A DNA stretch of 64,000 nt from Streptococcaceae bacterium (GCA_031254295.1 JAIRUS010000046.1:2973-66972), one strand, 5' to 3'. Positions 1-27,908 are shown, counted from the first letter of the stretch. Program-made: numbers and translations. Notes: generated from the sequence alone by a model not told the origin.

Positions 1-451
1 CCATGATCACGATCGCAGGATTTTCGGTGAGGAAGAGATAGCTTTCAAACTCTCCTCCGTCGGAGTAAATGACGGAAAGTCGACTGCAAGGTGCATCAGA
101 TGAAGCAGCGGTCGGAACAATTACGGCAGGAACATGCGCGTAATAAGCAACGGCCTTTGCGCTATCTAAAGTTTTTCCTCCTCCAATTCCGATGATTACA
201 TCAGCCCCATCAAGAGCCGCAAGGTGTCTGTCAATTTCATTCTTTGAACATTCTCCCCCAAAGAGATTAAAGGTTTGAGGAAGATTTTGACTTATAAAAC
301 TTGATAAAATATCAGCTTGATAAGTCTTAGCGATAAATGGATCAACCAAAATATAAGCTTTTTTTCCTTTTAGACTGGAATAATTAGCCAATTTTGTGAT
401 CTCGCCGTCTCCGATAATGAAGCTACCAGGAGAGCAAATGATTTTTGTCAT
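1..451 (-). CDS. gldA: Glycerol dehydrogenase (iron-containing ADH family); 5' part only, runs off the window edge
   Basis: Manual translation: MTKIICSPGSFIIG...VIIGIGGGKTLDSAKAVAYYAHVPAVIVPTAASSDAPCSRLSVIYSDGGEFESYLFLTENPAIVIM. ATG at 451 with AGAAAGG RBS. Not in the ORF track. Confidence 0.9.
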   Translation of the reverse strand, partial: MTKIICSPGSFIIGDGEITKLANYSSLKGKKAYILVDPFIAKTYQADILSSFISQNLPQTFNLFGGECSKNEIDRHLAALDGADVIIGIGGGKTLDSAKAVAYYAHVPAVIVPTAASSDAPCSRLSVIYSDGGEFESYLFLTENPAIVIM

Positions 452-667
452 GTGAAAAGCCTTTCTTTTTTGTATCTTGGCTGTATTATAATACTTAATC
501 AGTTAAAAGACAAAGATATTAAAAATGTTTTCACATGTTCAAAAGGTTGTAACCAGCCCAAACTCGATTATTCGTCTGTGTGTGGTAAACTCGTGTTCTA
601 TAACACAAAAAAGTGTACAAGAGCAATTTTTGCAACTATAGAATAATCGCTAAAGAATACGTTGAAT

Positions 668-681
668 TGAAAGCGGTTTTT
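668..681 (+). promoter_or_regulatory. Candidate cre (CcpA) site upstream of the PTS gene
   Basis: TGAAAGCGGTTTTT, a partial match to TGWAARCGYTWNCA. Confidence 0.5.
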
Positions 682-722
682 TGATAATATTTGACCAAGT
701 CATTAATAGGAGAAGGAGAAAT

Positions 723-2828
723 ATGATGCGGTTAAAAAAGGAGCAAGCTGAGGCGAAACTTTACGCACCTGTTTCAGGTGAGATGGTTCCCTTAGATAAG
801 GTTTCAGATCAAACATTTGCATCTAAAATGCTGGGAGACGGATTTGCGATTGAACCTTCGGATAGAAAAATTGTGAGTCCCGTATCTGGAACAATCAGTG
901 TGCAACAGGGACATGCGATTGGGATTCAAAGTGAGGAAGGACTTGAAATTCTGATTCACTTGGGAATTGATACAGTAGCTTTAAAAGGGACTCCATTCAA
1001 TATCAAAGCTCGGGTTGGAGATAAAGTTCAGGTGGGGGCACTTCTTGGAGAAGTGGACTGGGAGCAAGTAGACGCAGCATCTATCCCTAAAACTACACTT
1101 GTAATCATTACTAACACGGCAGATAAACTTGAGAAAATTTCAGCTGCTACAGGAAAAGTTATCGCTGGAAAAGAAGCAGCCAGATGTGAATTGAAACAGT
1201 CAAAATCAGAAGTTAAAAAGGCTGGAAAGGCAACGGGTTACCTTCAAAAATTAGGTAAGTCTCTCATGATGCCGATTCCGATCATTGCGGCAGCAGGAAT
1301 TTTCTTGGGGCTTGCGAGTGTTCTGCAAAATCCCAATATTGTAGGCCCAGCTTTTGTGGCCAATCTTGATGCGCAAAATGTCATTGGATTTATCAAAACG
1401 ATTATCGCAGCCTTATTTGCGAATTTGCCGATTTTGTTTGCAGTTTCAGTGACTATCGGTTTGGCCAAAGCTGAAAAAGCCAATGCAGCCTTTTCATCCG
1501 TCGTTGCCTTCTTGTTGATGCATGTCACGATTAGTTACATGCTGAGCCTTAAGGGAATCACAGCAGCAACTTATTCGGTTGATTTGTTAGTGAAGAGTGG
1601 GCAGTCAGTTTTAGAGGCAACAAAGGCTGTTTCCATGTATACGAGTGTCCTCGGTGTCTTTTCTTTCAATATGAATGTCTTTGGCGGCGTACTCGCTGGT
1701 GTGCTTGCGGCGGCTATTCATAACCGCTTCTATAAGACAGAGCTTCCAATGGCTATTTCTTATTTTGGCGGCAAACGGCTTGTGCCAATTATGACCACAC
1801 TTTTTGCACCAGTCCTTGGTGTGATTCTTTACTTTGTCTGGCCCTTCATTGGGACAGGCATTCAGAGTCTCGGAGAAATTATTGCCTCAGCTGGGCTGTT
1901 TGGAACCTTTATCTTTGGAATGCTGGAGCGTTTGCTCATCCCTACAGGCCTGCACAATATCCTCAATCAAATGGTTCGTTTCACACCAATTGGGGGTTCA
2001 GCGACCATTGACGGCAAACAATTTGTTGGCGCTTTGAATATTTTCAACGCTTTACTTGCTCAGGGGCATCCTAATATGGAAATCATGCGTTCGGCAACGC
2101 GCTTCCTTGCTCAAGGTAAGATTCCTTACATGATGTTTGGACTTCCAGCGGCTGCGTTAGCAATGTACCGCACGGCTTTACCAGAAAATAAGAAAAAAGT
2201 GGGCGCTCTGCTCTTTGCAGCAGCCTTGACGTCATTTACTACAGGGATTACAGAGCCCATTGAATTTCTGTTTATCTTCATCTCTCCAATTCTGTTTATA
2301 TTCCATGCAATCATGGGGGGCTTGGCCTTCATGCTCACAAACTTATTGGGAGTCGCGATTGGAAATGTTCAAGGGGGAGCCATTGATTTGGGAGTGTTCG
2401 GAGTGCTTCGTGGACTTGATACGCGCTGGTACTTTGAGCTTCTTCTAGGAGCCATTTATGCGCCAGTTTATTATTTCACATTCAAAAAAGTGATTATGTG
2501 GAAAAATCTGAAAACGCCAGGTCGTGAAGTAGAAGAAGATTTGGGAAGTTCCGCCGTCATGGACAACGCTCCAAAATTAACAGGAGACCTAGGACATAAA
2601 ATAATTGCCGCTCTGGGTGGTTTAGGAAATGTTGAATCCATTGACAATTGTTTCACGCGTCTTCGTCTAGTTTTGAATGATGCAAGCAAAATTGACGAAG
2701 AAACTCTGAAATCAACGGGAGCAGTCGGAATCGTCAAGTTGGATTCTAAAAATATTCAAGTTGTTTACGGACCACAAGTTGAATCTATCGCCTTGAAAGT
2801 AAAAGAGGCGGCAGGTCTGTCAGAATAA
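723..2828 (+). CDS. Glucose-family PTS enzyme II, domain order IIA-IIC-IIB
   Basis: IIA motif LIHLGIDTVAL at the N-terminus, IIC (LQKLGKSLMMP...GITEPIEF), C-terminal IIB (IDNCFTRLRL). ATG 723/726 follows an AGGAGAAGGAG RBS; the track start at 681 is too early. Confidence 0.92.
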   Translation: MMRLKKEQAEAKLYAPVSGEMVPLDKVSDQTFASKMLGDGFAIEPSDRKIVSPVSGTISVQQGHAIGIQSEEGLEILIHLGIDTVALKGTPFNIKARVGDKVQVGALLGEVDWEQVDAASIPKTTLVIITNTADKLEKISAATGKVIAGKEAARCELKQSKSEVKKAGKATGYLQKLGKSLMMPIPIIAAAGIFLGLASVLQNPNIVGPAFVANLDAQNVIGFIKTIIAALFANLPILFAVSVTIGLAKAEKANAAFSSVVAFLLMHVTISYMLSLKGITAATYSVDLLVKSGQSVLEATKAVSMYTSVLGVFSFNMNVFGGVLAGVLAAAIHNRFYKTELPMAISYFGGKRLVPIMTTLFAPVLGVILYFVWPFIGTGIQSLGEIIASAGLFGTFIFGMLERLLIPTGLHNILNQMVRFTPIGGSATIDGKQFVGALNIFNALLAQGHPNMEIMRSATRFLAQGKIPYMMFGLPAAALAMYRTALPENKKKVGALLFAAALTSFTTGITEPIEFLFIFISPILFIFHAIMGGLAFMLTNLLGVAIGNVQGGAIDLGVFGVLRGLDTRWYFELLLGAIYAPVYYFTFKKVIMWKNLKTPGREVEEDLGSSAVMDNAPKLTGDLGHKIIAALGGLGNVESIDNCFTRLRLVLNDASKIDEETLKSTGAVGIVKLDSKNIQVVYGPQVESIALKVKEAAGLSE

Positions 2829-2950
2829 ATCAAAGAAGCACGGGACGTCCGACCCACGTGCTTCTAGGGGGAATCCCTATGGGACCTGTCCTATGATTTG
2901 AAGAAGGAAGGAAAGCAGAAATAAGCTTGTTTCCGCCTCTCTTCCATCGT

Positions 2951-2976
2951 AAAAACGCGACTCGCGTCGCGTTTTT
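2951..2976. terminator. Bidirectional intrinsic terminator between the PTS gene and rpiR
   Basis: AAAAACGCGAC-TCGC-GTCGCGTTTTT. Confidence 0.8.
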
Positions 2977-3709
2977 AATTATAAGTCGCAAGATATTCCC
3001 TAAAAATAAGGCTCACGATATAGGTGAAGGAGAGGCGACTGGCCATGTCTAGTCCATTGATGAGTGTATTATCCGTCATCGCATAGAGTTGAAGATCTGA
3101 AAGCTTGGACAGGCTATTCTGCGAGAATCCAGTGATTGAGATGACTTTGGCAGAGTTTGCTTTGGCAATTGTCGCTGGAATTAAGACATTTTCTTGTTCT
3201 CCAGAAATTGAAAAACTAATCAGTAAATCTTTTTGAGTTAATTTTTTCGCCGCATATTTGACCATGTGGGGATCGACAAAAAGTTGAGAATTTTTACCTA
3301 AAACTTCCAGATAAAAATGAAATTCTTCAGCAGGAAAACGTGAAAGACCTAAGCCGTCCACCAAAATTTTATCAGACTCATGAATGAGGACTAGAACTTG
3401 TTTGATAAGCTCATCATTGAGTAACTGCTTGGTTTTGATAATTTGCTCATCGAGGCTAGTCGTTTCAAGCAGAGTCTGACCATCTTGTCGCGCAGCCTTA
3501 AGATTTTCCCTAAAGCTAGTATAGCCAGAAAAACCTAGCTTTTTAACCAGTCTTATAATTGTATTCGGACTGGTAAAATGTTTGACTGCAATGTCTCTAA
3601 CTGTAGGACTTTTTACTTCGGAGCGATTGTCAAGCAAATCTTGCAAAATCTCTTCTTCAAAGGAATTTAATTTATTCCGATTAGCTTTTAACACATCATA
3701 AAAGAACAT
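2975..3709 (-). CDS. RpiR/MurR-family regulator (HTH + SIS)
   Basis: TVRDIAVKHFTSPNTIIRLVKKLGFSGY; SIS motif ISFSISGE. Likely ATG at 3709 with GAGGT RBS. Confidence 0.9.
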   Translation of the reverse strand: MFFYDVLKANRNKLNSFEEEILQDLLDNRSEVKSPTVRDIAVKHFTSPNTIIRLVKKLGFSGYTSFRENLKAARQDGQTLLETTSLDEQIIKTKQLLNDELIKQVLVLIHESDKILVDGLGLSRFPAEEFHFYLEVLGKNSQLFVDPHMVKYAAKKLTQKDLLISFSISGEQENVLIPATIAKANSAKVISITGFSQNSLSKLSDLQLYAMTDNTLINGLDMASRLSFTYIVSLIFREYLATYN

Positions 3710-3721
3710 AAGGACCTCACC

Positions 3722-5374
3722 ATGAAATTTATAGAACAATTATATCAGAAATTAGCAGAAGTCTACTCAGGCCAAAAGCTAGAAGAAGCAAGAATAGCCT
3801 TTGAAGAGCTGGTTGAGGACTACTCAAAGCAGACTTTTTCAGAACGTGCACCCTTATCAGAAAAAAATGTTTATTTGATTACTTATGGGGATGCTTTTGT
3901 AGACGGCGATAGAAAAGGCTTATCAGTTCTTAAGGACGTTGTAGATAATAAACTGTCGGATACAGTCACAGATATTCATTTGCTTCCAATGTTTCCTTAT
4001 ACGAGCGATGATGGTTTTTCAGTAAGGGATTATGAGCAAATTAATTCTATCCTTGGAGATTGGAGGGATGTTAAGAGGCTTTCAGATGATTATCGCCTAA
4101 TGTTTGATTTTGTGGCCAACCATATGTCGCAATCAAGTGACTGGTTTCAGAAATTTTTGAATCAAGAGCCAGATTTTTCGGAGGCTTTCATCAAATTTGA
4201 TGAAAAGTTTGATAGCTCAAATGTCACACGCCCGAGGGTTTCTCCACTTTTCCATACTTATAAAAATGGACTGAAGGTTTGGACGACTTTTTCAGAGGAT
4301 CAGGTAGATGTTAATGCACAAGAGGTGAAGATGCTGGTAAGGCTGACTAAGATTCTGCTTGACTATGCAGCCAAGGGAGCAAGCAGCATTAGATTAGACG
4401 CAATTGGCTTCTTATGGAAAGAATCAGGCACGACTTGTATGCATCGGCCGCAAACTCATGCGATCATTCAGCTTTGGCGCTTACTGCTTGAAGAATTTGC
4501 ACCGAATACTCAAATAATAACAGAAACTAATGTGCCACATAAGGACAACGTTGCTTACTTTGGTAACGGAAATAATGAAGCGCAGCAAGTCTATCAATTC
4601 CCACTGCCTCCACTAGTATTACATACTTTTATCACAGGAAATAGCGAAAAGTTATCTGGTTGGGCAAAAGGCATAGAGCATGTGAGCCAAACAGCTAGTT
4701 ACTTTAATTTTTTAGCGAGTCATGATGGAATTGGATTACGTCCGACGGAAGGGATTTTATCAGACGAGGAGCGAGCACAACTTGTCGAACGCGTACTGGA
4801 AAACGGAGGTAAAGTTTCCTATAAAAATAATCCAGATGGCTCAGAATCAGTTTATGAGATGAATATCAATTTTTCCGAGGCGTTGAAAGAGGGAGAAAAT
4901 GATAAGTGGGTAACAGATAAAATGCTCGCTGCACATCATATTCTGCTTTCTGTAATTGGAGTTCCGGCTATTTATTATCACTCAATTTTTGGTTCAAAAA
5001 ATGATTACAAAGGCTTAAAGGAATCTGGGATAAATCGGCGAATAAATCGTGAAAAATTAGATATGCAGCAATTGTTTAACAGCTTAGAAGACGATGTTTA
5101 TCGAAAGGAGATATACCAAGGCATTCAGCGAATGATTAGAGTTCGGCAAAAAGAAATTGCCTTCAATCCTTATGGAAGCCAGAAGATTCTTGACTTGGGG
5201 AGTGGATGCTTTGGCGTGTTGAGAGAATTTAAAGGGCAACAAATTATTTGTGTCACGAATGTGACAAAGGAAAAACAAACATTGGGTGATTATGCGGGCT
5301 ATGATCTCATTTCTGAAAGGAAAGTTCAAGAACTTGGAGTCTATGAAACAGTTTGGATAAAGGAAGTCAGATGA
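3722..5374 (+). CDS. GH13_18 sucrose-phosphorylase-family enzyme, YcjM/glucosylglycerate-phosphorylase-like
   Basis: Motifs LITYGD, HLLPMFPYTSDDGFS, FDFVANH, RLDAIGFLWKESGT, ITETNVPHKDN, NFLASHDGIG, YEMNINF closely follow E. coli YcjM as I recall it. Confidence 0.85.
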   Translation: MKFIEQLYQKLAEVYSGQKLEEARIAFEELVEDYSKQTFSERAPLSEKNVYLITYGDAFVDGDRKGLSVLKDVVDNKLSDTVTDIHLLPMFPYTSDDGFSVRDYEQINSILGDWRDVKRLSDDYRLMFDFVANHMSQSSDWFQKFLNQEPDFSEAFIKFDEKFDSSNVTRPRVSPLFHTYKNGLKVWTTFSEDQVDVNAQEVKMLVRLTKILLDYAAKGASSIRLDAIGFLWKESGTTCMHRPQTHAIIQLWRLLLEEFAPNTQIITETNVPHKDNVAYFGNGNNEAQQVYQFPLPPLVLHTFITGNSEKLSGWAKGIEHVSQTASYFNFLASHDGIGLRPTEGILSDEERAQLVERVLENGGKVSYKNNPDGSESVYEMNINFSEALKEGENDKWVTDKMLAAHHILLSVIGVPAIYYHSIFGSKNDYKGLKESGINRRINREKLDMQQLFNSLEDDVYRKEIYQGIQRMIRVRQKEIAFNPYGSQKILDLGSGCFGVLREFKGQQIICVTNVTKEKQTLGDYAGYDLISERKVQELGVYETVWIKEVR

Positions 5375-6180
5375 TGCATCTTAAAATGCTAGTCACCGAT
5401 ATGGACGGAACTTTCTTGCGAGAAGATAAAAGCTATGATGAGAAACGATTTGAAAAAATCTTAATAGAGTTAGAGAAACGAGGTATTATTTTTGTTGTCG
5501 CCAGTGGAAATCAAATTTTCCGCCTCAAAGAATACTTTCAGAACTTTTCAAACAGAATTATTTATATTGCAGAAAACGGAGCCCAAGTATGGATAGACAA
5601 TGAGATGCTTTTTTCAGAAAAACTGGCAAGAGAACTCGTGCTTAATGTAAGCTGCGCAATTCTAGAACACCCCAAAATGGAAGGGAGAAAAGTTCTTCTT
5701 TCTGGCGAAAAGGGAGCTTACCTCTTGAACTCTGCCGATGAAGCCTATAAGAAAAAAATGAGTCGTTTTTATCGACAAATAAACTATGTCGAGGATTTCT
5801 CAAAGGTAGATGACGAGATTGTCAAGATAACAATGAACCTCCAAAATGAAAACTTAGGTGAAGTTGAAAAGTTTTTGAATACAATTCAGGGAGTAAGAGC
5901 AACAACAAGTGGCTTCCAGTCAATAGATGTAATCAAATCTGGAATTTCGAAAGCTAGTAGAATAAAATTTTTGGAAGACTATTTCAAAATTTCCTCGAAA
6001 GAAATTGCAGCCTTTGGAGATAATCTGAATGATAAAGAAATGCTAATGAGAGTAGCCTACCCATTTGCGACAGAAAATGCCGTTAACGCCATAAAAGAAA
6101 TAGCCCGAGAAGTTACCCCCTCTTGTGAAGAACAAGGAGTCTTAACCAAAATTGAAGAACTCCTAAAAAGCAATATATAG
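5371..6180 (+). CDS. Cof-type HAD-IIB sugar-phosphate phosphatase
   Basis: DMDGTFL, ASGN, GISKA, FGDNLNDKEM. ATGA overlap with the upstream stop. Confidence 0.9.
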   Translation: MMHLKMLVTDMDGTFLREDKSYDEKRFEKILIELEKRGIIFVVASGNQIFRLKEYFQNFSNRIIYIAENGAQVWIDNEMLFSEKLARELVLNVSCAILEHPKMEGRKVLLSGEKGAYLLNSADEAYKKKMSRFYRQINYVEDFSKVDDEIVKITMNLQNENLGEVEKFLNTIQGVRATTSGFQSIDVIKSGISKASRIKFLEDYFKISSKEIAAFGDNLNDKEMLMRVAYPFATENAVNAIKEIAREVTPSCEEQGVLTKIEELLKSNI

Positions 6181-6213: not shown

Positions 6214-7113
6214 TTATTTCTTAAAGCCATACTTCATCAAAACTTTTCGCTTTCTTTCAACTGAAACTTCAGTATAAATTTCAGTTGTCGTAATGCTTGA
6301 ATGTCCGAGAAGTTCTTGAATATCTCGCAGATTGGCTCCATTATCAAGTAAGCCCGTTGCAAAACCATGACGCAAGTAATGGGGAGTTGCAGCAGGATTT
6401 ACTCTGGCTAAAAGTTTATATTTAGAAAAAATATTTTCAATCGAAAAAATAGACAGCCTTTTCCCGTATTTATTGAGGAAAAAGGCTTTTTCATGCTCGC
6501 TGGGAAAATATTGTTTTCTCATGCTGAGATAAGCTTTGAGGCTACTTTTATCCTTTTTATGGAGAATGTAAAGAATGCGTTCCTTGCGATTTTTACCATG
6601 AATGACGATTTTTCCACTTTGTGCATCATAGTCGCCGAGTCGCATATTGCTGACCTCGCTGATACGTAAGCCAATGCTAACTAAAATATGCAAAATCGCA
6701 AGATTACGTATCTGATCTCGAAGTTTCTTAGGAGAAAGAGAAACAATGTTTTCAGCAGCCGAAAGCAGATTTTGGGTTTCACGAACGGTTAAAGTTCGAG
6801 GGAGCCTTTTTCCCTTACGAATCGCAATATGAGGGAGAGAGGAATCACTTATCAGCTTTTGCTCAAGCAAAAACTTATGAAAAAATTTAAGTGTAATCAA
6901 TTTTCTCTGCTTGGTACTGGCTTTATAATCCTCCTTTCGCTCAACAAATTCCATATAGTCAGCAATCCCTGAGACCAAGGTAAGTTGATGTTCAATGCAA
7001 AAATCTGAAAAAAGATTTAAATCAAAAGCATAGGATTTTAAACTACTAACAGATAAATTTTCCAATTCCTTTTTCTGAATAAAAGTTTCAATAAGTTTTT
7101 CCTTGTAGATCAT
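6214..7113 (-). CDS. Tyrosine recombinase/integrase (XerC/D-like)
   Basis: Complete catalytic set: GLRISE (R), HGKNRKER (K), PHYLRHGFAT (HxxR), LLGH, TEIYT (Y). Confidence 0.92.
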   Translation of the reverse strand: MIYKEKLIETFIQKKELENLSVSSLKSYAFDLNLFSDFCIEHQLTLVSGIADYMEFVERKEDYKASTKQRKLITLKFFHKFLLEQKLISDSSLPHIAIRKGKRLPRTLTVRETQNLLSAAENIVSLSPKKLRDQIRNLAILHILVSIGLRISEVSNMRLGDYDAQSGKIVIHGKNRKERILYILHKKDKSSLKAYLSMRKQYFPSEHEKAFFLNKYGKRLSIFSIENIFSKYKLLARVNPAATPHYLRHGFATGLLDNGANLRDIQELLGHSSITTTEIYTEVSVERKRKVLMKYGFKK

Positions 7114-23996: not shown

Positions 23997-24758
23997 TCAG
24001 AGCTTCTTTTTCATTTTGATTGTTCCGAGATTTCGATAGATAGAAAAACAATCAAGCAAGATTCTTGCATTAATCTGTAGCGCGATACGGCTAGAAGAAT
24101 CAACATCGAATTCATAACGACTGACGGGGGACTTGTAAGCGAGCATAGAATAATCGGCAAGATGGTGTAAGCGACTTCCTTTGCCACAAGTCAAAAGCAT
24201 TATGGTGATGCCTCTTTTTTTGGCCTCTTTGACAGCATTTATTAGGCTGTTAGTTTCACCAGATTGTGATAAGACGAGAATGACATCTTTCAGTCCTATT
24301 TGGTGGGAGTAGTAGAGAAAAAGGTCGTCATCATCAACATTGATACAGGGCTTTGCAATGAGATTCAACTTCCGATTGATATAATTTGCAATCGCTGTTG
24401 TGGTACCCGTGCTATAAATGTAGATGGTTTGAGCGCGATTCATCACTTGTACAAGATTTTCTACAATTTCAGGCTCTAATAACTCTAAAGTTTGATTGAC
24501 TTCAATAAAGTTTTTTTCGATAACGTGATTGACCTCATCAGAGAAGTTATTGAAGTGACGGAGTTCTTTTCTTTTGACAAAATTTTTATAGTCCGAATAG
24601 CCACTAAAGCCATGCTTTTTCAGACTGCGGATAATCGTTGCAGGTGATGCCGTCGCAAAGACTGACAGATCTTTAATTCCTAATTGAAGGACTTTCTGAG
24701 GATTTAGCTCAAGCTTAATAAATGTCTGCTTTTCCGTATCTGTAATTTCTTTTTTCAT
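23997..24758 (-). CDS. RpiR/MurR-family regulator
   Basis: ASPATIIRSLKKHGFSGY; SIS motif VLSQSGET. Confidence 0.9.
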   Translation of the reverse strand: MKKEITDTEKQTFIKLELNPQKVLQLGIKDLSVFATASPATIIRSLKKHGFSGYSDYKNFVKRKELRHFNNFSDEVNHVIEKNFIEVNQTLELLEPEIVENLVQVMNRAQTIYIYSTGTTTAIANYINRKLNLIAKPCINVDDDDLFLYYSHQIGLKDVILVLSQSGETNSLINAVKEAKKRGITIMLLTCGKGSRLHHLADYSMLAYKSPVSRYEFDVDSSSRIALQINARILLDCFSIYRNLGTIKMKKKL

Positions 24759-24919
24759 AAGAAATTCCTTCCTTATCTGATCACGAGTACTCTGTTTTCA
24801 TTGTAACAGATTTAATAGAGATTTAATAAAGAATAAAAATATTTTCAAGAAAATCAAGAAAAATAAAAAATTTTTCAAAAGTTCGATGCTAAGATGAACT
24901 TAACAGAAAAGGAGATTAG

Positions 24920-26236
24920 GTGAAAAAGATTAATATAACGGTTGCTGGGGCAGGGAGTGGCTATACTCCAGGAATACTACTGACGGCGCTTAACTTTCCA
25001 GATGAGTTGCCAGTTGGCGAGATTAGACTTTATGATATTGATGAAGAACGTCTTCGTGACATGGAGACGATTATGGCTTATCTTTTGGAAAAGAGACAAG
25101 AAGATGTAAAGTTGATTGCAACAGTGAATCCAAAGCTGGCTTTTGAGGGCTGTGACTTTGCCTTCACTCAAATCCGAGCGGGTGGAATGGAAATGCGCGA
25201 GTTGGATGAAAAAATACCTCTCAAGCATGGACTGGTCGGTCAAGAAACGTGTGGTTTAGGTGGTTTTGCCTATGGGATGCGCTCAATGAAAAGTTTTAAA
25301 GAGCTAGTTGGCTATATACAATTGTATGCTCCAGACGCTTGGATTCTTAATTACACAAATCCAGAATCCATTATCTCTGAATCGGTTCGTCGTTTTTTTC
25401 CAGAGGCCAAAATTATCTGCGCTTGCGATATGACCATAGGGATTGAAGAGATCATTGAGAAATCCTTTGGATATGATAGAAAGAATTTTATTTCTCAATA
25501 TTATGGTCTGAACCATTTTGGCTGGTATCGAGAAATTTTTGACATCTCAAGAGGAAAAGATATACTTCCAGAGATTATTGAAAAGACTATCGCAGAGGGA
25601 TATAAGGTTGATGAAGAGGAACTAGATTGGCAACATACCTGGAAATTTCTGGAGTTTCTGACAGGTCAGTTTCCAAGTGCGCTCCCGAATAACTATCTAC
25701 AGTATTATCTTTATCCAAACAAAAAGGTTGCGGAGGCAAATCCAAACTACACGCGGGCAAATGAAATCATGGACGGCCGTCTTAAGAAGATAAAGGATAC
25801 AGTTGCTAAAATCAAAGAAAATAGAGATTTGGATACAATTGATTATGCAGGAACAGGGCATGGTCTTTACATTGTTCAGATTGCCATTTCTTTGCTTCAG
25901 AATAAAAATGGCCGCTTCATGTTGATTGTGCCAAATAAAGGAGCCATTCCTAATCTTAGAGAAGACGCAGTGGTCGAAGTGCCTTGTTATGTCAATTCAA
26001 GAGGGGTGGAGCCTATTTCACTCAGATTTGATATTCCTGATTTTCACAAAGGTTTGATGGAAGCGCAAGTAGCCGCTGAAAAATTACTTGTAGATGCTTT
26101 CGTTGAAGGTTCTTATCAAAGAGCCTTTGAAGCTTTTACGTTAAATCAAACTGTTCCCAATGCAGAAGTAGCCAAAATAGTCTTAGACGAGTTTATCGAA
26201 GCAAATGGAGATATGTGGGTTGACTTGAAAAAATAG
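24920..26236 (+). CDS. GH4 6-phospho-alpha-glucosidase
   Basis: TVAGAGSGYT, GQETCGLGG, NYTNP, CACDM, GLNHFGW. Confidence 0.9.
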   Translation: MKKINITVAGAGSGYTPGILLTALNFPDELPVGEIRLYDIDEERLRDMETIMAYLLEKRQEDVKLIATVNPKLAFEGCDFAFTQIRAGGMEMRELDEKIPLKHGLVGQETCGLGGFAYGMRSMKSFKELVGYIQLYAPDAWILNYTNPESIISESVRRFFPEAKIICACDMTIGIEEIIEKSFGYDRKNFISQYYGLNHFGWYREIFDISRGKDILPEIIEKTIAEGYKVDEEELDWQHTWKFLEFLTGQFPSALPNNYLQYYLYPNKKVAEANPNYTRANEIMDGRLKKIKDTVAKIKENRDLDTIDYAGTGHGLYIVQIAISLLQNKNGRFMLIVPNKGAIPNLREDAVVEVPCYVNSRGVEPISLRFDIPDFHKGLMEAQVAAEKLLVDAFVEGSYQRAFEAFTLNQTVPNAEVAKIVLDEFIEANGDMWVDLKK

Positions 26237-26321
26237 CTTTCCAATAAAAGTTAGAGGTTTATAGGGAAGCTATAAAGATGTTCGCACAGTTGAGTGAACG
26301 CAATTTAAAGGAGTTAAAAAT

Positions 26322-27908
26322 ATGATGGCAAAAATTCAGCGCTTTGGAGGCGCAATGTTCACGCCAGTTCTATTCTTTGTTTTTTCGGGATTGATTGTTT
26401 CGATTTTTGGGGTGTTAAATAATCCAGCAATTGTAGGAAGTATTGCAACAGATGGAACGACCTATCATGGAATTATGAAAGTTGTTGAAAATGGTGGCTG
26501 GACAGTTTTTAATAATATGGATATTCTCTTTGCTGTTGGGCTTCCTCTCGGATTAGCCAATAAAGCAAGAGGACGGGCAGCTCTGGAAGCCTTCCTGCTC
26601 TATATGACCTTTCAAACTTTTCTTTCAACTTTATTGGAAAATTTTGGAAAAATCGTTAAGATTGACTTTGCTTCTGAAGTTGGAGATACAGGAAAAGGCT
26701 TAACCATGATTGGGGGAATCAAGACGCTTGATACAGGAGTGCTTGGTGCCATTGTGATTGCTGCGATTATTGTCTATCTACACAATAAATTTTTCGATGT
26801 GCGTTTGCCAGATTGGCTCGGAATTTTCCAAGGCTCTGCCCTTGTAGCTGTGATTGGATTTGTTGTCATGTTTGCGTTAGCAATCGTCACTTTCTTTGTT
26901 TGGCCAATCCTCCAAAATGGAATTAATGACATGCAACATTTCATGGTGAAATCTGGTGATTTTGGGGTCTTTATCTATATTTTCCTTGAAAAAGCTTTGC
27001 TTCCGACGGGGTTACATCACTTCATTTATGCCCCATTTCAATTTGGCCCTGCAGTTGTAGAAGGTGGAACAACCCTTTATTGGTACGATCATTTACAACA
27101 ATTTGCAGCTTCTCATCAAACGTTGAAGTCTTTATTTCCAGCAGGAGGATTTGCACTCCAAGGTTTGTCAAATTTCTTTGGTGTACCAGGAATTGCACTG
27201 GCATTTTGGTCAACAACTAAAAAAGAAAATCGTAAGAAGCTTGCCGTGTTAATTATCCCAGGAGTGATTACCTCAGTCTTTGCAGGAATTACGGAGCCAT
27301 TTGATTATACTTTCCTCTTTATTGCACCTGTTCTATTCTTTGTTCATGCAGGTTTAGCTGCCATATTTGCAACAATTTCCTATGCGCTAGGCACGGTGGG
27401 AAATATGGGAGGTGGTTTGATTGAAATCACAACCTCCAATTTTATCCCTCTTTGGGCCAATCACTACATGACTTATATCGTCATGTTTGTTGTGGGAGCT
27501 TTCTCACTCTTGACTTACTTCCTTGTTTTCAGATTTTTAATTCTTAAGTTCAACTTTCAAACGCCTGGTCGAGCTGAAGGCGAAGTTCAGATGTTTCATA
27601 AAGAAGATTACAAGGCCAAAAAAGCCGCGAAAAAGTCAAACGGAGACTCTGCAAGTGATTCTCAATATGATGAGCAAGCCATCGGCTTGATAGAGGCTTT
27701 TGGTGGAGTTGAAAACATTGATACGATTACCAATTGTGCAACACGCCTGCGAGTTTCAGTTTTTGATGAAGCAAAGGTCTTGAGTGATGCGGATTTTAAA
27801 AACTATCAAGCCCTAGGCGTTGTAAGAAATGGCAAAGCCTTTCAAGTTATTATCGGTCTCTATGTTCCAAATTTACGGGAAGTTTTTGAAAAGATTGTCA
27901 AAGGTTAA
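26322..27908 (+). CDS. Alpha-glucoside PTS IICB (GlvC/AglA-like)
   Basis: IQRFGGAMFTPVL, PTGLHHFIYAPF, GITEPF, NCATRLR. Confidence 0.9.
   Translation: MMAKIQRFGGAMFTPVLFFVFSGLIVSIFGVLNNPAIVGSIATDGTTYHGIMKVVENGGWTVFNNMDILFAVGLPLGLANKARGRAALEAFLLYMTFQTFLSTLLENFGKIVKIDFASEVGDTGKGLTMIGGIKTLDTGVLGAIVIAAIIVYLHNKFFDVRLPDWLGIFQGSALVAVIGFVVMFALAIVTFFVWPILQNGINDMQHFMVKSGDFGVFIYIFLEKALLPTGLHHFIYAPFQFGPAVVEGGTTLYWYDHLQQFAASHQTLKSLFPAGGFALQGLSNFFGVPGIALAFWSTTKKENRKKLAVLIIPGVITSVFAGITEPFDYTFLFIAPVLFFVHAGLAAIFATISYALGTVGNMGGGLIEITTSNFIPLWANHYMTYIVMFVVGAFSLLTYFLVFRFLILKFNFQTPGRAEGEVQMFHKEDYKAKKAAKKSNGDSASDSQYDEQAIGLIEAFGGVENIDTITNCATRLRVSVFDEAKVLSDADFKNYQALGVVRNGKAFQVIIGLYVPNLREVFEKIVKG

Follow-up and report, generated by a model that had tools for sequence, protein, structure and literature searches.

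A candidate phosphotransferase-dependent module for glucosylglycerate catabolism in a Streptococcaceae genome

Introduction

A 64,000-nt stretch of DNA from a termite-gut Streptococcaceae bacterium (GCA_031254295.1, JAIRUS010000046.1:2973-66972; hereafter the window) opens with genes for a glycerol dehydrogenase (gldA), a glucose-family phosphotransferase system (PTS), an RpiR-type regulator, a GH13_18 phosphorylase and a HAD phosphatase. The question raised by this locus is which glucoside such a set of genes would take up, and by what route it would subsequently be broken down. The best explanation we can offer, and one that commands middling confidence as a complete scheme, is that positions 600-6180 form a catabolic unit for exogenous 2-O-alpha-D-glucosyl-D-glycerate (GG), with gldA as a bystander.

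According to this scheme, the glucose-family PTS would import GG and phosphorylate C6 of its glucose, yielding 6-phospho-GG, from which a Cof-type HAD phosphatase would take off the phosphate. A GH13_18 glucosylglycerate phosphorylase (GGaP) would then phosphorolyse free GG to alpha-glucose-1-phosphate and D-glycerate, and a glycerate kinase, encoded in the operon in relatives and on contig C164 here, would convert the glycerate to phosphoglycerate. Dephosphorylation by the HAD is what would allow a phosphorylase whose glucose pocket has not changed to cleave the free glucoside. The divergent RpiR would sense the phosphorylated glucoside, probably acting at a palindrome that precedes the PTS gene. 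Most lineages would use a GH4 enzyme to hydrolyse the 6-phosphate to glucose-6-phosphate and glycerate, with the HAD and GGaP taking its place in one lineage.

Gene content of the module

Genes were called from six-frame open reading frames (ORFs) together with Pfam and NCBIfam scans of the window, and these agree with an earlier reading of the sequence alone (the sequence-only reading) on the presence and placement of all five genes. The features are as follows.

2-451, minus strand: 5' part of gldA (glycerol dehydrogenase, iron-containing alcohol dehydrogenase family; NF006941, PF00465), encoding the N-terminal 150 aa
603-620, plus strand: candidate RpiR operator ACACAAAAAAGTGTACAA, half of a TTGTACACAAT/ATTGTGTACAA-type palindrome
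662-690, plus strand: promoter-like region, read by eye, with a -35 (TTGAAT, 662-667), a sequence like a catabolite-responsive element (cre) (TGAAAGCGGTTTTT, 668-681) and a TG-extended -10 (TAATAT, 685-690)
723-2828, plus strand: PTS enzyme II (EII) of the glucose/maltose family, with EIIA, EIIC and EIIB fused in that order (PF00358, PF02378, PF00367), 701 aa
2950-2977, unstranded: terminator-like palindromic hairpin AAAAACGCGACTCGCGTCGCGTTTTT, separating the convergent PTS and rpiR genes
2975-3709, minus strand: RpiR/MurR-family regulator, PF01418 (HTH_6) plus PF01380 (SIS)
3722-5374, plus strand: predicted GH13_18 glucosylglycerate phosphorylase (YcjM-like), 550 aa, 44% identity to E. coli YcjM
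5371-6180, plus strand: Cof-type HAD-IIB phosphatase (TIGR00099, 156.9 bits; PF08282)

The ORFs of the PTS, RpiR and HAD genes run from 681 to 2828 (plus), 2975 to 3739 (minus) and 5353 to 6180 (plus), with probable ATG starts at 723, 3709 and 5371, respectively, the last of which overlaps the GH13 stop codon (ATGA). The gldA gene extends beyond the window edge and is complete, at 361 aa, on the same contig. A Xer-type recombinase gene (6214-7113, minus strand) lies 3' of the module.

Identity of the phosphorylase

The E. coli protein YcjM is a characterised, strict GGaP (EC 2.4.1.352), and GGaPs are also known from Meiothermus silvanus and Spirochaeta thermophila (Franceus et al. 2017, PMC7178133). 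Two marks set GGaPs apart within GH13_18: at beta-5 the motif (T/S)ETN, and in loop A a Glu where all other clades have Gln (PMC7178133). Both are present in the window protein, the first as T267-E268-T269-N270 (within ITETNVPH, residues 266-273) and the second as E379 (within VYEMN, residues 377-381), where sucrose phosphorylases of related genomes read IYQIN. Compared with those GtfA-type enzymes, the window protein has TETN, not PEIH, and a loop-A Glu, not Gln. It shares 44% identity with YcjM across 514 residues (E 3e-152) and only 26-30% with GtfA-type sucrose phosphorylases, and it scores 204.6 bits on the sucrose phosphorylase model TIGR03852, under the cut-off of 334.4. Its best named relative, at 73% identity, is a protein of Streptococcus zalophi, and its best match among solved GH13_18 structures is distant (3e-48). 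A tree of 95 sequences, in which YcjM served as the characterised GGaP reference, places the window protein inside the YcjM-like clade, with a very long branch between that clade and the GtfA sucrose phosphorylases found in related genomes. No second GH13_18 copy was found in the genome.

The active site is similarly conserved. Subsite -1 of GH13_18 enzymes comprises five glucosyl-binding and three catalytic residues that are essentially identical across the family (PMC6720575). All eight are present in the window protein (D97, H134, R224, H334 and R439 for glucosyl binding; nucleophile D226, acid/base E268 and transition-state D335 for catalysis), and they are invariant among the window protein, YcjM and 86 further aligned clade members. 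Moreover, loop B (VTRPRVSPLF, including TRPR) and loop A (SVYEMNINF) are almost as in YcjM, and the active-site and loop A/B residues are shared with YcjM and with 78 relatives from contexts that lack the HAD. The active-site segments contain no basic residue specific to the group, the group-specific differences amounting to eight conservative positions (L/M, I/L and Y/F changes). The VGA(IYQ) motif that marks loop A of glucosylglycerol phosphorylases (PMC7178133) is likewise missing from the loop A of the window protein, which reads GSESVYEMNINF.

The window enzyme is therefore very probably a GGaP in its predicted activity, and by its sequence it appears to be an ordinary one. The sequence-only reading had called it YcjM-like, as distinct from a sucrose or sucrose-6F-phosphate phosphorylase, and identity, model score and phylogeny all bear this out. 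The same reading had also seen a mismatch between the glycerate-type motifs and the adjoining gldA and had proposed a new GH13_18 specificity on that basis, an idea that finds no support in an active site and loops that match those of YcjM; a new specificity arising from loop A/B differences was dropped as a candidate for the same reason. Given that the -1 subsite and catalytic residues are those of YcjM, the substrate would be unphosphorylated GG.

Gene contexts across genomes

The phosphorylase was compared with its relatives at 83 loci, 80 of them from named genomes (52-73% identical) and three from assemblies. Most (about 73 of the 83) show a first context, consisting of RpiR, a fructose-family PTS EIIABC, a GH38 enzyme and GH13_18, with or without a glycerate kinase, in Bacillaceae, Listeria, Clostridia and several Lactobacillales. 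The PTS and GH38 proteins of this context score best on the models for E. coli MngA and MngB (mannosylglycerate), below their cut-offs. As a side observation, a PTS operon with a phosphorylase for unphosphorylated GG, present at some 70 of these loci (L005-L080), fits the import of mannosylglucosylglycerate, in which case the GH38 would strip a 6-phospho-mannose cap, leaving free GG.

A second context, found at seven loci in addition to the window, contains a glucose-family PTS, a divergent RpiR, GH13_18, the HAD and a glycerate kinase, the window's own kinase lying elsewhere. Its carriers are Streptococcus zalophi, Enterococcus asini, other Enterococcus species and Streptococcaceae metagenome-assembled genomes (MAGs). 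PTS orthologues in every locus of this type are 65-72% identical. The clustering of PTS, RpiR, GH13 and HAD genes is not due to chance, since the four recur together at these seven other loci, and the link drawn by the sequence-only reading between the phosphorylase and the other three is upheld. The gldA gene adjoins the phosphorylase at none of the 83 loci. At two loci, L099 and L100, the first and second contexts are adjacent, with a MngA-like PTS and GH38 just upstream.

The EIIA domain is variably arranged among these loci. It is fused at the PTS N-terminus in the window (723-1230), S. zalophi and L100, giving an unusual A-C-B order, and in the Enterococcus-type loci a separate EIIA gene closes the operon of GH13, glycerate kinase (GlxK) and HAD (12560-13042 in L004; 11615-12079 in L099).

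A third context emerged when the EIICB part of the window PTS was searched against 400 Lactobacillales genomes. Proteins at least 60% identical occur in 14 of them, and 13 of the 14 lack GH13_18, the exception being E. asini. Eight of the loci without GH13_18 were retrieved, and in every one a gene for a GH4 6-phospho-alpha-glucosidase (matches: PDB 6VC6, 8.6e-168; B. subtilis GlvA, 1.4e-132) comes after the PTS gene, along with that for an orthologous RpiR; none of the eight has the HAD, and four, from three GTDB families, have an adjoining glycerate kinase. Those four (L110, L111, L112 and L115) share the order PTS EIICB, GH4 6-phospho-alpha-glucosidase, RpiR and glycerate kinase, an arrangement that makes them a candidate hydrolytic route for 6-phospho-GG and that would imply an undescribed GH4 substrate. 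A GH4 gene just upstream of the E. asini PTS gene was set aside, being part of a different operon, of the cellobiose-type EIIC/SIS kind, and only ~30% identical to the GH4s of the sister loci.

The window RpiR is 52-74% identical to its counterparts at GGaP-type loci, 44-49% at GH4-type loci and 22-30% to other RpiRs. In a tree of the PTS proteins, those of the HAD/GGaP type form one well-supported clade nested among those of the GH4 type. Because the orthologous PTS and RpiR occur elsewhere with GH4 and never with the HAD, the HAD and phosphorylase appear to have replaced GH4 in this lineage. To judge by L099 and L100, the source of the GGaP was probably a MngA/GH38/GGaP/GlxK operon next door.

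Glycerate kinase (PF02595) adjoins the phosphorylase at 47 of the 83 related loci, including all seven with the window's architecture, and this linkage agrees with the glycerate-type motifs in pointing to glycerate as the aglycone. The simplest reading of the PTS/RpiR orthogroup would be that it delivers an alpha-glucoside of glycerate as its 6-phosphate.

The PTS, regulator and phosphatase

The window PTS has the full domain set of a glucose-family enzyme II (EIIA_1, EIIC and EIIB), with the phosphorylated His site in IHLGIDTV and the Cys site in NCFTRLR. Its best NCBIfam match is TIGR02004 (MalX/PtsG-type; 494 bits, under the cut-off), none of the substrate-specific PTS models reaches its cut-off, and its closest PDB entry is the EIICB of PtsG (7e-76). 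The regulator has the N-terminal HTH_6 and the sugar-phosphate-binding SIS domain that characterise RpiR/MurR proteins.

The phosphatase exceeds the cut-off of the Cof-type HAD-IIB model TIGR00099 (137 bits), and its motifs I and IV are intact (DMDGTF and GDNLND). Its nearest structures are those of the E. coli hexose-phosphate/sugar phosphatase YbiV/SupH (2e-46), and its scores against glycosyl-3-phosphoglycerate phosphatase (MPGP/GpgP) models fall well short of the cut-offs (43.4 against 164.75 for TIGR01486; 38.5 against 244.35 for TIGR02461). The HAD gene adjoins GH13 at 7/7 loci with the glucose-family PTS, 0/71 loci with MngA/GH38 alone and 0/8 GH4-type loci, and it is our proposed 6-phospho-GG phosphatase.

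Weighing the scheme

Several points weigh against the GG scheme. Every substrate and reaction step in it is deduced from sequence and gene context, and the scheme presupposes that GG is available in a termite gut. The exchange of GH4 for the HAD and GGaP happened only once in evolution, which means that the co-occurrence counts cannot be treated as independent. The HADs of the cluster share only 33-61% identity, and that of one locus, L002, is matched equally well by the window HAD and by a paralogue on contig C34. Furthermore, the glycerate kinase is unlinked to the module in this genome; four of the eight GH4-type loci lack an adjacent kinase, so that the PTS orthogroup may carry other alpha-glucosides; and neither the consensus scan nor the motif search found a promoter or operator for the GH13-HAD pair.

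The most serious rival, unlikely but by no means negligible, holds that the PTS imports another alpha-glucoside, glucose or maltose, while the GGaP degrades intracellular GG, or GG from a larger glycoside such as mannosylglucosylglycerate, and the HAD acts as a sugar-phosphate stress valve. It gains from the MalX/PtsG-type character of the best, sub-threshold models, from the four kinase-less GH4-type loci just mentioned, from the MngA-like PTS and GH38 just upstream at L099 and L100, and from the GH4s of the orthologous loci, which are 75-92% identical to widespread PagL/MalH-type 6-phospho-alpha-glucosidases annotated for maltose-6'-phosphate. Against it, glycerate kinase adjoins at 11 of the 15 loci of the PTS/RpiR orthogroup, in two enzymatic contexts and at least four families, and the Enterococcus-type EIIA gene sits within the GH13-GlxK-HAD operon. 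Moreover, a canonical PTS/GH4 system for alpha-glucosides is encoded elsewhere in the same genome, at 23997-27908 of the window. This second system comprises an RpiR (minus strand), a GH4 that is 40% identical to the 6-phospho-alpha-glucosidase of L110, and an EIICB scoring 699 bits on TIGR02005, over the cut-off.

It is also conceivable, if improbable, that the phosphorylase cleaves 6-phospho-GG directly, giving glucose-1,6-bisphosphate and glycerate, with the HAD trimming the bisphosphate or serving some other role. Such a route equally predicts that the HAD would be found only with the combination of GGaP and glucose-family PTS, and the roughly 70 operons with a MngA-like PTS and GH38 that lack a phosphatase could mean that a 6-phosphate is tolerated, a pattern that is equally well explained by GH38 removal of a 6-phospho-mannose cap. 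The glucosyl-binding and catalytic residues, all of which are as in YcjM, an enzyme that uses plain GG, argue against direct cleavage, as do the family-wide constancy of subsite -1 (PMC6720575) and the lack of a group-specific basic residue in the active site. Extended to the whole PTS-linked Firmicute clade of GH13_18, with 6-phospho-GG phosphorolysed to glucose-1,6-bisphosphate plus glycerate before the HAD acts, the idea becomes slightly more doubtful still; if true, both the specificity and the product would be new to the family, and the PTS operons in some 80 genomes would be explained. The sequence-only reading had foreseen import as a 6-phosphate followed either by the HAD or by direct cleavage. 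The former, a route through PTS, HAD and phosphorolysis, is plausible, and the latter is disfavoured by the YcjM-identical active site.

A biosynthetic role is very improbable. In such a module, the phosphorylase would run in reverse to make either GG or glucosyl-3-phosphoglycerate, the latter then being dephosphorylated by a GpgP-like HAD, with GG serving as a compatible solute. GGaP reactions are reversible (PMC11009771), and some glycosyl-3-phosphoglycerate phosphatases do belong to HAD-IIB. The window HAD, however, lies far below the models for those phosphatases and closest to YbiV/SupH, the genes are linked to an uptake PTS, a glycerate kinase and, in sister loci, a hydrolytic GH4, and a cre-like site such as that in the PTS promoter is in keeping with a catabolic operon.

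Finally, it is scarcely credible that the substrate is glucosylglycerol, cleaved by a GH13_18 of new specificity and followed by gldA oxidation of the released glycerol: gldA is divergently transcribed 270 bp from the PTS gene, but it is missing from all 83 loci and from the related genomes described below, its relatives lie in clostridial PFL/FSA/DeoR clusters, loop A reads SVYEMN with no VGA(IYQ), and the conserved partner is a glycerate kinase.

The gldA gene

No gldA homologue lies within 8-9 kb of the phosphorylase at any of the 83 related loci, and none was found at E <= 1e-40 in seven related genomes, five from the genus and two from the wider family. The nearest homologues, at no more than 66% identity, are clostridial (Lachnospiraceae, Lacrimispora and Eubacterium), and two of these relatives, when examined, were found in clusters of PFL-like, activase, FSA, GldA and DeoR genes. 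Since gldA is absent from the related loci and its clostridial homologues sit in other clusters, it and the sugar module have different histories. It was dropped as a pathway member on the strength of its lack of linkage, its absence from the seven related genomes, and its differing phylogenetic affinity and usual context. We regard it as a bystander outside the module, and probably as a separately acquired orphan. The suggestion that gldA marks glycerol as the aglycone is thus not borne out, glycerate kinase being the conserved neighbour. That suggestion had been staked on the linkage of gldA to the cluster in other genomes, and because gldA is unlinked in every one of them, it falls on its own terms. 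The clusters of the clostridial gldA relatives include PTS genes as well (PFL-like/FSA/DeoR/PTS), and on contig C51, upstream of the window (L083, 2338-3423), gldA stands isolated among unrelated SDR, DUF2461-like and RibD-C-like genes.

Regulation

An 18-nt motif, ACACAAnAATGTGTACAA, precedes the PTS gene in the window (603-620), S. zalophi (L001), L099, L100 and L102, as well as at L115-L117, which are of the GH4 type; at 9693-9714 of L117 it is a perfect 22-bp palindrome, TTGTACACAATATTGTGTACAA. It occurs once in its own genome at no more than one mismatch, and it is not found near GH13 or near the C164 glycerate kinase at up to three mismatches. The motif at 603-620 is a good candidate for the RpiR operator in its predicted function, and its position upstream of the -35 may indicate activation. 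The layout of the PTS promoter (662-690) is similar in L100 and L001; the promoter-like region and its cre-like site, read by eye and below the threshold of the consensus scan, are weak assignments. That scan for promoters and terminators gave no more matches than in shuffled sequence, and a search for repeats in both control regions yielded nothing informative. The start codons of the divergent rpiR and GH13 genes are 12 bp apart (window 3709-3722), so that the promoter of each must lie within the other gene. In relatives (L001, L004, L099, L100 and L102), the spacing ranges from an overlap to a 43-bp gap.

Relation to known systems

One comparison is with the PTS route for mannosylglycerate in E. 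coli, where, as Sampaio and colleagues are said to have described in 2004, MngA (a fructose-family PTS EIIABC) and MngB (GH38) act together, the latter hydrolysing 6-phospho-mannosylglycerate. Both this route and the window module as proposed depend on a PTS to take in a glycosyl-glycerate osmolyte and lead to glycerate and its kinase, and MngA/MngB-like genes flank the phosphorylase at about 73 of the 83 related loci and are present on contig C95 of the same genome. The window module differs in having a glucose-family PTS and no GH38, and in the proposal of dephosphorylation followed by phosphorolysis in place of hydrolysis of the phosphate ester.

In terms of logic, the module as proposed is like the maltose route of E. 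faecalis, which consists of MalT (a PTS EIICBA), MapP (a maltose-6'-phosphate phosphatase) and MalP (a maltose phosphorylase) (Mokhtari et al. 2013, as cited in PMC3737437 and PMC8950772). In that route, a glucose-family PTS generates a 6-phospho-alpha-glucoside, a dedicated phosphatase removes the phosphate and a phosphorylase acts on the free glucoside, just as would happen here, and in both cases a GH4 6-phospho-alpha-glucosidase is the alternative used by other bacteria. The parts differ: MapP is of the EEP family and MalP of GH65, whereas the window has a HAD-IIB phosphatase and a GH13_18 phosphorylase, so the module works alike without being a member of that system. Moreover, GH13_18 is retaining and gives alpha-glucose-1-phosphate, whereas the GH65 MalP is inverting and gives beta-glucose-1-phosphate, and the proposed substrate is glucosylglycerate, not maltose. 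Because the phosphatase and phosphorylase come from different families, the two routes would be convergent. Literature searches, outside which the primary GGaP and MapP papers lay, returned no description of a PTS-dependent glucosylglycerate pathway.

With the GH4 systems (GlvA/MalA, the MalP PTS and GlvR of B. subtilis; AglA/AglB of Klebsiella), the window module has RpiR-family control in common. Orthologues of its PTS and RpiR are paired with GH4 at all eight fetched loci, whereas the module itself lacks GH4; its PTS falls among the MalX/PtsG-like enzymes and outside the branch specific for alpha-glucosides (TIGR02005), and the linkage to glycerate kinase points to a glycerate aglycone.

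Compared with YcjM-type GGaPs, the module shares TETN, the loop-A Glu, the TRPR of loop B, the catalytic and -1 residues and, in its relatives, the glycerate kinase linkage. The gene for YcjM itself is found in an ABC-transporter/kojibiose operon, in contrast to the PTS operons of the window's clade; within that clade, the window GGaP stands with a glucose-family PTS, RpiR and HAD, and other members stand with a MngA-like PTS and GH38. Many bacteria that are not known to make glucosylglycerate carry a GGaP gene, whose cellular role is unknown (PMC7178133). The contexts described here offer a testable role for it in Firmicutes, namely PTS-mediated scavenging of exogenous glycosyl-glycerates, with three interchangeable back-ends (the GH38 hydrolase, the GH4 6-phospho-alpha-glucosidase, and the HAD phosphatase plus GGaP). 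If the scheme is true, its PTS would be the first one for glucosylglycerate, and 6-phospho-GG would be a new intermediate. The scheme would also provide a candidate phosphatase and a candidate GH4 hydrolase for that compound, and a second, independently evolved bridge of PTS, phosphatase and phosphorylase besides that of enterococcal maltose use. No new GH13_18 specificity follows from it.

Origin of the module and its scattered partners

The GH13_18 gene is patchily distributed, occurring in nine of 61 related genomes. A MAG of the same genus, L010, carries a locus of the first context with a GH13 that shares only 59% identity with that of the window; in the tree, the window GH13 groups with those of S. 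zalophi and L100, and the genome also has the MngA-like and GH38 genes on contig C95. It follows from these observations that the module probably came from a Streptococcus-like donor, or has at least moved, and it now lies between the orphan gldA and the recombinase gene.

The single glycerate kinase of the genome, on the 6.5-kb contig C164, is followed by ispA, tlyA, argR, recN and a DUF805 gene, and the same order is found 3' of the operon-linked kinase at L100, a 74%-identical locus. This shared downstream order indicates that module and kinase have become separated in this genome. On C164 (L084, 3-1344), the kinase comes directly after the 3' end of a further RpiR-family gene, which is truncated by the contig edge. 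Contig C95 contains an RpiR, a MngA-like PTS, GH38 and a second MngA-like PTS, in an assembly too fragmented to join it with C164. The Streptococcus-type glycerate kinases (L084, 292-1344; L001, 11458-12510; L100, 10458-11513) are all ~350 aa in length, and since their profile alignment runs in two stretches and skips ~25 positions (153-178), they appear to share a deletion.

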